A DNA stretch of 64,000 nucleotides from Candidatus Aenigmatarchaeota archaeon (lineage in GTDB: Archaea > Aenigmatarchaeota > Aenigmatarchaeia > CG10238-14 > SpSt-28). This document shows, one piece after another, positions 36,372-60,121 of the stretch (the stretch's first letter is position 1; each line of letters starts with the position of its first letter). Below the pieces are notes generated by a model. That model saw only the letters and a list, made by a program, of their open reading frames with translations. It had not been told where the DNA came from and did not search any database. Location of the stretch: assembly GCA_039000985.1 (NCBI GenBank), contig JAWBMD010000003.1, positions 1 through 64,000 of the forward strand, read 5' to 3'. The translations under genes and the position numbers were made by a program.

Positions 36372-36469
36372 GCCGGTGTAGTTGAGCGGTTAAAACGCCA
36401 CGCTCATATTGAATGAGCTTCGATAAATGAGATACGTGGAGGTCGAGGGTTCGAATCCCTCCACCGGCA
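36372..36469 (+). tRNA. elongator tRNA-Met(CAU) with 25-nt intron 36409-36433
   Basis: CCACG-CTCATA^A-CGTGG; BHB central helix CUCA/UGAG; Ile2 identity not fully excluded. Confidence 0.88.
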
Positions 36470-36471
36470 AA

Positions 36472-36572
36472 GCCCCAGTAGCTCAGTTTGGATAGAGCGG
36501 CGCCCTTCTAATTTAGAAGGTTTGAAAAAAGATGAAAGGCGTAGGTCGCGGGTTCAAATCCCGCCTGGGGCA
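36472..36572 (+). tRNA. tRNA-Arg(UCU) with 26-nt intron 36511-36536
   Basis: GCGCC-CTTCTA^A-GGCGT; A20 in the D loop. Confidence 0.9.
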
Positions 36573-49871: not shown

Positions 49872-49958
49872 TTGCCTGATATGTGGAAATCTCGTTTCAC
49901 CATAAATTCTTCATCGCTCAGAATCAACCCAAGCTTTCATTATTTTTTCCACATATCT
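49872..49958 (-). ncRNA. 16S intron after position 1513 (87 nt) containing a two-guide box C/D RNA
   Basis: BHB ends, 12-bp terminal stem, C/D'/C'/D boxes with two 12-nt guides antisense to 16S. Confidence 0.85.
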
Positions 49959-50260: not shown

Positions 50261-51080
50261 TTCGACCAGCTAGAGAGCATTTATTAAACTTTTCATGTCT
50301 TCAAAAATTTTATCAAAAGCTTGAAGTTCTTCGCGATTAAAACTATCTAATTTTCTCTTAGTTTCTATTAGTCCTCAAACTTTAATCATTGGAAAATTGA
50401 ATTTAATTTTGAATCCTTGAAAAGCCAATTTTTGAATTTGTTCTTTTATTTCTCTTTTTGAGAAGGAATTTATTTCTTTGCATTCTATCACTATGTTACT
50501 GTCAGGTAAGAAAAAGTCAACTATAAGATTTTCTTTGAGTGGAAAGTTAACATGGAACCCAATATTCTTCTCCGATAGCGCTTTCTCCAGTAATCTCTCT
50601 TGTGGTGCACGTCTCTTTTTGAGACTTTCTATAGCTCCTTTTCTTCTTGCTTTTTGTGCTGCATAACTTTTTCCATGTACTTTAAACCATTCGATAGCTT
50701 CCATCTGAGATTTCTAAATCTATTTATTACTTCAGATAAAATTACTACCCGCATTCTACTCTGAATTTTATTAACCAATTTTCTGCAGTTTTAAATTGCA
50801 TTGTTTTTATTTTACCTAACTCGTACTTGTTGATATTTTTGGAAGGACTTCCTACGAATTTCTCAAACTCATTTTGTGATAATCCTAATGCTAACCTTAA
50901 TATCAATAGTTTTTGAGGGTTTAACATTAGAATTTCTGGAGAAATCTCCGTAAAGTTTTTGTTTCTATCTTTACTTCTTTAAAGAGTTTTCTTATTTTAT
51001 CCTCTGGAATTATAGTTTTTGGTATATATATTATACTGATGTACGACCATTTAAATCTTACTGACCAACTCTCTAGCTGT
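50261..51080 (-). mobile_element. 16S intron after position 1197 (820 nt)
   Basis: BHB: CGGU/GUCG central helix, CAGCUAGAGAG/CUCUCUAGCUG stem; AT-rich coding interior. Confidence 0.9.
50270..51050 (-). pseudogene. fragmented intron-encoded HTH(XRE) plus PD-(D/E)xK endonuclease-like ORF
   Basis: LRLALGLSQNEF..KYELG HTH; VDFFLPDSNIVIECK; frame breaks and an in-frame TGA at 50375. Confidence 0.7.
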
Positions 51081-51179: not shown

Positions 51180-51211
51180 TTCAACCCTGACCAGAAATAC
51201 TCTGGTCAAGT
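51180..51211 (-). other. 16S hairpin intron after position 1105 (32 nt)
   Basis: BHB UAAC/GUUG, stem CUUGACCAGAG/UUCUGGUCAGG. Confidence 0.85.
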
Positions 51212-51214
51212 TCG

Positions 51215-51246
51215 TTAGTCTCATCAAGCTATTTTTGCTCGATGAT
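51215..51246 (-). other. 16S hairpin intron after position 1102 (32 nt)
   Basis: BHB GGUU/GACU, stem UCAUCGAGC/GCUUGAUGA. Confidence 0.85.
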
Positions 51247-51544
51247 TTAACCGACTTGACGGCACGCCTCACGGTACGAGCTGACGGTGGCCATGCACCA
51301 CCGCTCGGCTTGTCTGGTAAGCCCTTCAGACTGACCATCATCCTGCCGTCTGCGCTGGTAAGATTTCCGGTGTCGAATCCAATTGAACCGCACGACCCAC
51401 CCCTTGTGTGTCCTCCCGCCAATTCCCTTAAGTTTCATCCTTTCGGACGTACTCCCCAGGCGGCCCACTTAACACCTTCGCTCCGGCACAGGGTACTCCC
51501 AAGGAGTACCCCACACCAAGTGGGCATCGTTTACGCCCAGGACT

Positions 51545-51624
51545 TTCCCGCGCAGATGGGGAGCAGTTCATTTCTCAAAGGATTAGATATTCTTCATATA
51601 ATCAGAAGATACTCCCAACCACGC
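51545..51624 (-). ncRNA. 16S intron after position 801 (80 nt) with a C/D guide module
   Basis: BHB CCCG/CGGG; interior CUGA..AUGAAGA-AUAUCUAAUCCU-UUGA..AUGAAC. Confidence 0.85.
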
Positions 51625-51703
51625 ACCGGGGTATCTAATCCCGATCGCTCCCCTGGGTTTCGTCCCTCACCGTCCGGACTGTTCCAGGCAGCCGCCTTCG
51701 CCA

Positions 51704-51900
51704 CTCACCCAACAGAGGTCGGCTTAAAAAAGACTGTTAGGAGTTTCTCTATAAAAAATAAAAACGTTGTTTTCTTTTTTCCAAGTAAATTATTTGGCAA
51801 CTCCTCTAAAAATTGTATTTTTTTTATTGTTAGAATTTCAATAAGTCTTTTAGTCAAAGCTCGAAGCGACTATAATTATTGACCGCCAACACTCTGCTGA
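51704..51900 (-). other. 16S intron after position 722 (197 nt), AT-rich interior probably an ORF remnant
   Basis: BHB CACC/GGUG, stem CAGCAGAG/CUCUGUUG. Confidence 0.85.
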
Positions 51901-52449: not shown

Positions 52450-52482
52450 TTCGAGCCAAAAGTGATAGAAATCACTTATGGT
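52450..52482 (-). other. 16S hairpin intron near position 144 (33 nt)
   Basis: BHB CGAG/CUCG, stem CCAUAAGUGAU/AUCACUUUUGG. Confidence 0.85.
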
Positions 52483-58345: not shown

Positions 58346-60121
58346 ATGAAATTATTAGTTATTATTACTATATTTTTACTTTCAATAACTATTTCATTTT
58401 CAACTACACCAAAATCTATTACAAGCTTAATAGCCGAGCTAACAATATCTGGCGAAATAGAAATAATTGGTAATATAAAGGAAATTTCAACTAAAGTATA
58501 CATACCACAAGAAGGAATTAAAAATATCAGTGTTTATCCAAATAGCTGGAAATTTACTAAAGATGATTTGAATAACACAATGATTGAAATAAGTTGGAAA
58601 AATCCTTCTAATACTGAAAAATATGAAATAAAAATAGTAATAGAGAATAAAGCAAAATTTTTTGAGAATTTAACAAAAGAAGAATGGTTTATAGATTTAG
58701 CAAAGAAAGAAACAAATTTAACAATTGCAAACGATGAAATAAGAAAGTTAGCTTATGGTAATGAAACTATATTGGAAAAAGCTATAAGATTGACAAAATG
58801 GATAGATGAAAACATAGAATATGATTGGGATGCTTTAGAAAAAAGTATTCTCACACAAAGATCTGCTATAGAAGTTTTAAAAGAAAGAAAAGGTGTATCT
58901 GGAGAAATGTCGAATTTTTTAGTAGCTGCTATGAGAACTCAAAATATACCAGCTAGAGTTGTATTTAGTTATACTTTAGAAGAAATTGAAGATACAATAG
59001 AGCAAAAGGTGGCTCATGGTTGGGCTGAAGTTTATATCGATGGAAAATGGGTACCATTTGATATAACTTTTTTGGAATCTGGTTATTTAGACGCTTCTCA
59101 TATAAAATTTGCTAATTTGTTGGAAAACAATGCTTATGAAAGAACTTCATATCTTGGAATTGGAGATGTTATTGTAAAAAGAAATCCTTTAAAAATTAAA
59201 GTAATAAACTATAGTGTAGCTAATTTTAGTTTAGTTTTAGATGTAAAGGAAGAAACAAAAGGTAATGAAGCCATTTTAGCTAAGGCTAAAACTTTTGGTC
59301 CTTGTAGGTTAGAAAAGTTAGAGCTTATTTCTTGCATCGATTCAAACAAAAAACCTTTATTAAAAATTTTAGATAATGTAAGGAAATTTTGGTTTTGTAA
59401 TGAGAAAGAAATAAACTTTTTAATTTTAATTCCACGTATAAAAGAAAATGAAATAATAAAATGTCCAATAACTTTAATTAACGAATATGGGTCAATAATT
59501 GAAAAGCATATAATAATTGATGGAAATTTTCCAAAGCTGGAGGAGGAGATAATAGAAGGACCAAGTCAAGCCTCAATACTTGAAAAAATAAAATTAAAAA
59601 CAAAATCAAGCGGAATATGGTTTTCACCAAATTTCACTTTAAGCAAATATGGTAATGAAATAGAATTACAATTAAATAAGCCTGGAAAATATAAGCTTTA
59701 TTTTTATTCAAATGGAAAATTTGGTGAAAAGGAAATAGAAATTTTAGATGTAAAAGAGTTTGAGTTTGTTAATATTGAATTACCAAAAAAAGTTGAATTT
59801 AAAAAGGCATTTAGCATTAATGTAACTATAAAAAATCTTTTGAACAAAACAAATAATGCAAAAATGAAAATTGAATTCCAAAACAAAGAAAAAATTTTTT
59901 ACATAACATTTAATCCGTTAGAAGAAAAATTATTAGCATTAAATTTAACAGCTGAAAAAGATGAAATTAGCAAAATAGTTTTATCGGTAGAGGGGAAAAC
60001 ATTAAATACTTATATAACTTTTGTTGAAGTTAGCAAGCAAATTAACATAATAGATATTTTGATTAAAATTCTTGAAAAGTTATTTTCTATTTTTATTATT
60101 CTACTTGGAGTAACAATATAA
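58346..60121 (+). CDS. secreted transglutaminase-like domain protein (catalytic Cys replaced by Ser)
   Basis: W...NIEYD, GVSGE, IPARVV, HGWAEVY, WVPFD; ATG 58346 used because the ORF-track start overlaps 5S. Confidence 0.8.
   Translation: MKLLVIITIFLLSITISFSTTPKSITSLIAELTISGEIEIIGNIKEISTKVYIPQEGIKNISVYPNSWKFTKDDLNNTMIEISWKNPSNTEKYEIKIVIENKAKFFENLTKEEWFIDLAKKETNLTIANDEIRKLAYGNETILEKAIRLTKWIDENIEYDWDALEKSILTQRSAIEVLKERKGVSGEMSNFLVAAMRTQNIPARVVFSYTLEEIEDTIEQKVAHGWAEVYIDGKWVPFDITFLESGYLDASHIKFANLLENNAYERTSYLGIGDVIVKRNPLKIKVINYSVANFSLVLDVKEETKGNEAILAKAKTFGPCRLEKLELISCIDSNKKPLLKILDNVRKFWFCNEKEINFLILIPRIKENEIIKCPITLINEYGSIIEKHIIIDGNFPKLEEEIIEGPSQASILEKIKLKTKSSGIWFSPNFTLSKYGNEIELQLNKPGKYKLYFYSNGKFGEKEIEILDVKEFEFVNIELPKKVEFKKAFSINVTIKNLLNKTNNAKMKIEFQNKEKIFYITFNPLEEKLLALNLTAEKDEISKIVLSVEGKTLNTYITFVEVSKQINIIDILIKILEKLFSIFIILLGVTI

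Follow-up and report, generated by a model that had tools for sequence, protein, structure and literature searches.

A short intron in the 16S rRNA gene of an Aenigmatarchaeota archaeon reads as a rearranged box C/D guide for its flanking exon

Introduction

What does an 80-nt intron without an open reading frame do in the 16S rRNA gene of an archaeon with a low-G+C genome of 843 kb? The intron lies in the window analysed here, a stretch of 64,000 nucleotides from a Candidatus Aenigmatarchaeota archaeon. An initial annotation had proposed that it carries a box C/D module with permuted boxes, whose target would be U788 in the exon next to it. We have followed up this proposal by comparing the introns inserted at the same site in related genomes, by searching for free-standing guides with the same target and by comparing the 16S gene with assembled metatranscriptomes.

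The 801 intron and its host gene

The 16S rRNA gene is of the Aenigmatarchaeota type and is interrupted by seven introns of the BHB type. The features needed below are the following, the numbering of the target being transferred from E. coli through the alignment in the supplement of PMC4644070.

49939..52600, minus strand: host gene, archaeal 16S rRNA (Rfam RF01959, 1020.6 bits)
51545..51624, minus strand: 801 intron, 80 nt, BHB, between U801 and A802 in E. coli numbering (sequence)
51624..51630, minus strand: 5' side of the BHB, made up of the first 3-nt bulge and of the strand that the exon contributes to the 4-bp central helix, C796-G799 (sequence and fold)
51544..51555, minus strand: 3' side of the BHB, comprising the second 3-nt bulge, the strand that the intron contributes to the central helix, and the 3' strand of the terminal stem (fold)
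51628..51642, minus strand: target region, 784-798 in helix 24 and the 790 loop; U788 lies at 51638, U793 at 51633
51607..51616, minus strand: guide 1, antisense to 16S 790-798; its D+5 position (51610) pairs U793
51591..51605, minus strand: K-loop 1, box D CUGA, 4-nt loop and box C AUGAAGA (D/C covariation in 51 introns)
51579..51590, minus strand: guide 2, 12 nt, antisense to 16S 784-794; its D+5 position (51583) pairs U788
51565..51578, minus strand: K-loop 2, box D' UUGA, 3-nt loop and degenerate box C' AUGAACU (kept in two-module relatives)
51558..51565, minus strand: accessory arm, pairing either 16S 773-780 (5' strand of helix 24) or guide 1 within the intron

The boundaries of the intron (51624-51545, minus strand) had been placed correctly, to the nucleotide, in the initial annotation. 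The last CGGG of the intron pairs with exon C796-G799, and the resulting 4-bp central helix stands between two 3-nt bulges, one at each cut site, as in BHB rRNA introns. Across the 55 introns collected at this site, the terminal stem is paired in 271 of 275 cells, with 2-6 letter combinations per position; the central helix of the relatives was part of the search pattern and hence gives no independent support for the BHB. The intron has no open reading frame in its 80 nt and so lacks the endonuclease gene of a LAGLIDADG homing intron.

Five further BHB-type introns of the same gene (52450-52482, 51704-51900, 51180-51246 and 50261-51080, minus strand) are confirmed by RNA joints. They comprise a 33-nt hairpin in helix 7, an A+T-rich intron of 197 nt at 722, two 32-nt hairpins near 1102-1105 with a mini-exon of 2-3 nt between them, and an 820-nt intron near 1197 with broken ORFs, one piece of which was scanned and had no Pfam match. 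The 87-nt intron of helix 45 (49872-49958, minus strand) holds a C/D sRNA of canonical order, whose D+5 positions we read as A1408 and C1535. The 3' end of this 16S rRNA is devoid of the usual anti-Shine-Dalgarno tail, and the 16S, 5S and 23S genes are unlinked in the assembly.

Boxes and guides within the intron

The elements of the 801 intron follow the order guide-D-loop-C-guide-D'-loop-C'. The series CUGA (51605-51602), UUAU, AUGAAGA (51597-51591), guide (51590-51579), UUGA (51578-51575), GAA and AUGAAC (51571-51566), all on the minus strand, is as first annotated, and the register that places D+5 of the guide on U788 (51638) was confirmed. This is guide 2, which forms 10 Watson-Crick pairs and one G-U pair with 16S 784-794 and thus shows the 12-nt spacer, the duplex of about 10 bp and the Watson-Crick D+5 pair of a C/D guide. 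To call its target universally conserved was too strong, N. equitans and the loci L184 and L223 having G at 793. In eukaryotes the equivalent of U788 is a pseudouridine.

The intron stem had been thought to take the place of a second guide. A second guide is in fact present at 51616-51607, so that the stem is not a simple replacement for it, and 47 of the 51 short introns have a U793 guide ahead of their first D box. This guide 1 has the Watson-Crick pair at D+5 and a duplex of only 6 bp, a bulged A and 3 bp in the window's intron; other introns have 8 straight pairs. Helix 21, with which guide 1 can form 7 bp here, was considered as its main target and set aside: it is variable in relatives that keep the guide, and intact in L223, which has lost it.

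The boxes CUGA/AUGAAGA and UUGA/AUGAACU are conserved and covarying, the second C box being degenerate. A canonical archaeal sRNA reads C-guide-D'-C'-guide-D, has a terminal K-turn and contains two spacers of 12 nt. The 801 intron departs from this order, and its second spacer is broken up by the intron stem. We therefore describe it as a variant that would work like a box C/D sRNA and not as a plain member of that class. No sRNA family reached the Rfam gathering score in the 64-kb window. Among 20,000 dinucleotide shuffles of the intron, 12 contained a D-loop-C module whose guide formed at least 10 Watson-Crick pairs, D+5 included, with the 60-nt local exon, and none combined a 10-pair guide with a second guide of 6 pairs. 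The duplex of the accessory arm amounts to -16.9 kcal/mol at 37 C.

Introns at the 801 site in related genomes

Introns were collected from 371 genomes of the phylum and from a metagenome scan by means of their 3' splice site, boxes and guides playing no part in the selection. The splice-site pattern (at most one mismatch) was found in 38 genomes, of which 16 had ordinary exons and 22 an intron-type end; the latter all belong to three families of the window's order. The metagenome scan gave 94 stretches. Of the 130 splice-site rows, 40 were dropped for want of a usable 5' exon, being either cut introns or chance matches to sequence other than rRNA. The remaining 90 correspond to 55 distinct introns, of which 51 are short (48-110 nt) and four long (584-638 nt). 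A looser pattern of exon plus guide returned at least 120 loci, mostly chance matches, from which only L103 was used. The four long introns encode LAGLIDADG proteins (PF14528), and neither guide is present in them. The short introns come from three families of one order and from unclassified contigs; they are kin, so that the counts given here measure conservation and are not independent trials.

All 51 short introns contain a D-loop-C module whose guide is matched to the local exon, through D+5, by at least 6 Watson-Crick pairs, a combination seen in 103 of 5,100 shuffles (2%). Thirty introns have one module and hence one K-loop, 21 have two, and each of the 72 modules has a Watson-Crick pair at D+5. 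The first slot is directed at U793 in 47 introns, at U788 in three and at G784 in one, and the second slot at U788 in 21 out of 21, which makes U793 the common target and U788 an add-on. Loop length (2-9 nt) and intron length vary, and the register of the guide is constant. The first D and C boxes covary: position 2 of D and position 5 of C are U-A in 26 introns, C-G in 11, U-G in six, U-U in six, and U-C and C-A in one each, the change from U-A to C-G accounting for 11 introns. In the 21 two-module introns box C' keeps RUGA and is free in its later letters, as is the C' of the free-standing copies described below.

The exceptions are informative. In L184 and L223, where the exon has G793, the U793 guide is absent and a U788 guide occupies slot 1, as it does in L157. 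The guide of L234 is a new one, directed at G784 with the register unchanged, and the 3' arm of this intron tracks its own exon variant. These natural swaps and losses fit a real guide. The permuted module announced for U788 is thus borne out by boxes and register kept in relatives, and the case named as refuting it, an inverted exon duplication with no box conservation in relatives, does not apply.

Arms of at least 6 letters, antisense to a strand of helix 24 and without a D box, occur in 45 of 51 introns (a count made without shuffle control); they face 770-784 in 23 introns and 802-815 in 35. In nine of the 51 genes a further intron directly follows U793; these genes nevertheless retain the U793 guide, the target of which exists only once that intron is removed. 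BHB introns right after U793, from 36 nt to several hundred nt, were noted in L013, L015, L016, L017, L163 and L188, and likewise in L197, L199, L205, L243, L247 and L268. They are cut at the very nucleotide to which guide 1 would direct methylation, and the site is absent from the 13 loci given in the available text of Jay and Inskeep (PMC4496867).

Free-standing copies and origin

The block C-guide788-D'-loop-C' was matched in 16 of 371 genomes: eight times within the 801 intron, seven times elsewhere and once by chance. None of the 371 genomes has it both in the 801 intron and elsewhere. In four genomes of a genus of the same family, the block is the first half of a canonical free-standing sRNA, and three of these four have a 16S gene without the 801 intron. 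In three genomes of another family it lies within a multi-guide array, and one of them (G026) has a minimal 801 intron with the U793 guide alone. The array (L280, L281 and L282, around 1400-1620) concatenates about four C/D guides sharing boxes and is found in three genomes of one family.

In the window's genome the 801 intron is the sole match to the U788 block, in an assembly that is 89.7% complete. A scan of this genome for canonical C/D sRNAs gave none aimed at 788 or 793 among the best 10 of 19 matches. Its convincing canonical C/D candidates all lie in pre-rRNA; among them are those of locus L325 (G000:C12, about 57100 and 59850-59950, minus strand), in a 23S intron and in the 23S leader, where one guide points, by eye, at the P-loop G (2251). 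A search of 118 genomes of the order for a free-standing U793 guide found none: of its 29 matches, four belong to the 801 intron family and 25 are chance-like ones in coding DNA. One candidate of the window's genome, C8:16007, was rejected, being placed inside a protein-coding frame (TFB, as we assume from its appearance) and having no partner boxes.

A likely origin is a mobile LAGLIDADG intron inserted at 801, whose gene would have been lost. In the proposed sequence of events, this former homing intron would have gained guide modules and taken up the C-guide-D'-C' half of an ordinary sRNA.

Host machinery, splicing and circles

The host encodes fibrillarin (PF01269, E 1.6e-70), Nop5 (PF01798, E 1.1e-64), L7Ae (PF01248, E 6.7e-28), the splicing endonuclease EndA (PF01974, E 1.5e-19) and the ligase RtcB (PF01139, E 2.9e-141), all over the Pfam cut-off. 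The RtcB match is in two pieces within a 966-aa open frame (G000:C1:66304-69051), as an intein would give.

RNA evidence came from four metatranscriptomes of two studies, compared as assembled contigs with the 16S gene. Splicing of the 801 intron is weakly indicated: the exact joint 51544/51625 occurs in one of the four runs (X10), in one contig of depth 9.7 whose short side has 24 letters and which comes from a slightly different strain; an intronless relative could give the same joint. This joint was not seen in the one DNA run compared. Exon joints for the other 16S introns were seen in RNA contigs, and a contig of run X5 retains the 801 intron while three other introns are joined out; contigs are not single molecules, and we draw no splicing order from it. 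In run X9 the 801 intron is without cover, and this run was left out as evidence on it.

Circle joints were found for the helix-45, 722 and 1197 introns, that of the 87-nt helix-45 intron (runs X5 and X9) at depth 275. None for the 801 intron is among the joints listed for the four RNA runs, in which contigs show presence and not absence. The joints 49822/52630, corresponding to a circular pre-16S rRNA, occur in runs X5 and X10.

A probable guide, proposed to act on its own precursor

The 801 intron is very probably a real C/D guide, judging from conserved boxes, register and swaps. It is predicted to direct 2'-O-methylation of U788 (Um788) with good confidence, and that of U793 (Um793) is a reasonable expectation. 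How it would act is a finer question. The reading that we favour, at a probability of about 0.6, is that of a rearranged box C/D guide with two K-loops that acts on its own precursor and then refolds into the BHB; on the narrower point of action in cis on the unspliced precursor versus in trans, we lean only slightly towards cis.

In this mechanism the intron RNA would bind L7Ae and Nop5-fibrillarin. During transcription guide 1 would fold back on exon 790-798 and form a hairpin beside K-loop 1, guide 2, between the two K-loops, would take 784-794, and the accessory arm would keep helix 24 open. The targets for U788 and U793 overlap, and the two guides would therefore act in turn. After methylation the RNA would refold into the BHB, which needs the same C796-C798, and EndA and RtcB would splice it. 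Both K-loops are local (D, short loop, C); judging by the K-loop structure in the available part of PMC8413462, L7Ae would not require a circle and could already bind the precursor in its linear form.

When the boxes and guide 2 are kept unpaired in the folding, the guide-1 hairpin has -19.5 and the BHB -20.9 kcal/mol at 37 C, and -8.3 and -7.3 kcal/mol, respectively, at 65 C; these energies exclude proteins and K-loops. The two folds are mutually exclusive because both use C796-C798, and as transcription proceeds the guide-1 hairpin can be the earlier of the two to form. In the window's intron the accessory arm pairs guide 1 and buries it, both in the BHB fold and when the intron is free. Action in cis would be favoured by the position of every guide target within 17 nt of the splice site, by the shortness of guide 1 and by its partial burial in the modelled stem of the excised intron. 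The near-equal, mutually exclusive folds, the parallel with the tRNA introns and the contrast with the helix-45 sRNA are our reasons for opting for the precursor: the sRNA of the helix-45 intron has canonical order and distant targets and is seen as a circle, whereas the 801 intron is permuted and has adjacent targets. In the window, the tRNA-Met and tRNA-Arg genes (36372-36572, plus strand; misnamed Gln and Ser by ARAGORN) have introns of 25-26 nt with the design guide-D-loop-C, in which a guide of 6-7 nt places D+5, by eye, on position 34 of the adjacent anticodon.

Some points count against this reading. Guide 1 is short, and the 118 genomes of the order gave no free-standing U793 guide. 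The available part of the P. abyssi 16S modification tables (PMC7005279) has nothing at the equivalents of 788 or 793. Archaeal C/D activity is said, in the accessible text of PMC8413462, to need a symmetric two-site RNP, with which the one-K-loop forms (30 of 51) conflict.

Alternative explanations

The same guide RNA might instead act in trans after excision, as a circle released by EndA and RtcB or as a stem-closed RNA. The intron can be read as a canonical sRNA that has been circularly permuted, with the opening in the D guide; a circle would restore C-guide-D'-C'-guide-D, its 3' arm and guide 1 forming a split guide that brackets the ligated 801/802 junction. Arms against 802-815 in 35 of 51 introns, the circle joints of three other introns of the same gene, the circular form of the permuted N. 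equitans sRNA24 (excerpts of PMC3491384) and the action in trans of the tRNA-Trp intron guide (excerpts of PMC7994747 and PMC7714728) are all in line with this. However, guide 1 is paired into the closing stem of the excised window intron, 6+3 bp are few for a guide that has to locate its target in trans, and the 3' arm is equally able to pair in cis; moreover, no 801 circle joint is listed in the four RNA runs, whose contigs show presence and not absence, against a depth of 275 for the helix-45 circle. We consider action in trans rather unlikely, though it is the main rival. Less probable by far is that the RNP is mainly a chaperone for folding or splicing and methylates little or not at all, its arms and L7Ae-bound K-loops holding helix 24 open or aiding the BHB, a proposal that concerns above all the single-K-loop forms. 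It would account for the arms without a D box behind them (45 of 51 introns) and for the single K-loop of 30 of 51, a chaperone role has been proposed for archaeal sRNAs (available text of PMC4644070), and no measured Um788 or Um793 was found in the literature consulted, a point on which supplementary tables of measured archaeal modifications may bear. Against it, D+5 is Watson-Crick paired in 72 of 72 modules, guide swaps hold the exact register, and the U788 block is identical to that of free-standing sRNAs.

Finally, the intron could have arisen by decay of a homing intron and carry an inverted exon copy, its box-like words being due to chance in A+T-rich DNA. Four long introns at the same site do encode LAGLIDADG proteins, the antisense pieces are colinear with the exon, and one D-loop-C word appears in 1,151 of 5,100 shuffles. 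Yet the guide is in register in 51 of 51 introns versus 2% of shuffles, the boxes covary, three different guides occupy one slot, the block is shared with free-standing sRNAs, and the four long introns hold neither guide. This explanation is strongly disfavoured, and we regard it as highly improbable.

Comparison with known systems

One of the closest parallels to the 801 intron is the C/D guide in the euryarchaeal pre-tRNA-Trp intron (Haloferax volcanii, Pyrococcus sR50), which, in the portions of PMC7994747 and PMC7714728 available, is likewise a BHB intron with two guides for its own host RNA beside the splice site. The 801 intron differs in its 16S host, in the order D-C-guide-D'-C', in having two K-loops and no terminal K-turn and, as a family, in its overlapping targets and the existence of one-K-loop forms. 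The tRNA-Trp guide, at first thought to act in cis, was shown to act in trans (same sources). The D guide of N. equitans sRNA11 is near-identical to guide 2, its predicted target U757 being E. coli U788 (accessible parts of PMC3491384 and PMC4644070), and this sRNA is expressed (25,000 reads, supplement of PMC3491384); unlike the 801 intron it is free-standing and canonical in order, its second guide is aimed at 23S rRNA, and its target is predicted, not mapped. N. equitans sRNA24 (PMC3491384) and Pyrobaculum sR56 and sR57 (PMC6009581) have circularly permuted boxes, as the 801 intron does, but in the portions consulted they are neither intronic nor aimed at flanks and have no BHB ends. The searched text of the Pyrobaculum supplement contains no guide for the 790 loop.

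Short 16S introns of Thermoproteales, Desulfurococcales and Aigarchaeota (Jay and Inskeep 2015, PMC4496867) resemble the 801 family in their BHB ends, conserved site and coexistence of endonuclease-bearing and short forms. In the available text they are called functionless hairpins or partial or remnant introns, with no guides reported; 801 is not among its 13 loci, and the nearby locus '803' is likened to it by position only, not by sequence. Guides in tRNA introns and permuted sRNAs have each been published before; no paper on guides in archaeal rRNA introns was found in the largely open-access literature searched.

Significance

The 801 intron lies inside the binding site of common 16S primers (about 789-806), and its carriers are therefore likely to be undercounted in surveys. 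Its predicted targets U788 and U793 flank A790, which lines the P site (available part of PMC7005279). A wider and more tentative reading is that small archaea possess self-guiding introns, in which K-loop-only half guides of the design guide-D-loop-C would methylate the adjacent exon in cis and work as a methylate-then-splice switch, guide hairpin and BHB being rivals for the same bases of the exon. With one or two modules and exchangeable guides (U793, U788, G784), a former homing intron may in this way have become a part of ribosome maturation, and the design may also serve in the 25-nt tRNA introns of this genome.

The family would provide natural guides with one and two K-loops, contrary to the rule that archaeal methylation depends on an RNP which is symmetric and has two sites and two spacers of 12 nt. 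It would also be a compact system in which to study whether guiding takes place in cis or in trans, and in which order methylation and splicing occur. It would be an archaeal counterpart to intron-borne snoRNAs. Short archaeal rRNA introns are usually seen as functionless remnants of homing elements, and the 801 family would show that one of them has been kept for a task of the host.
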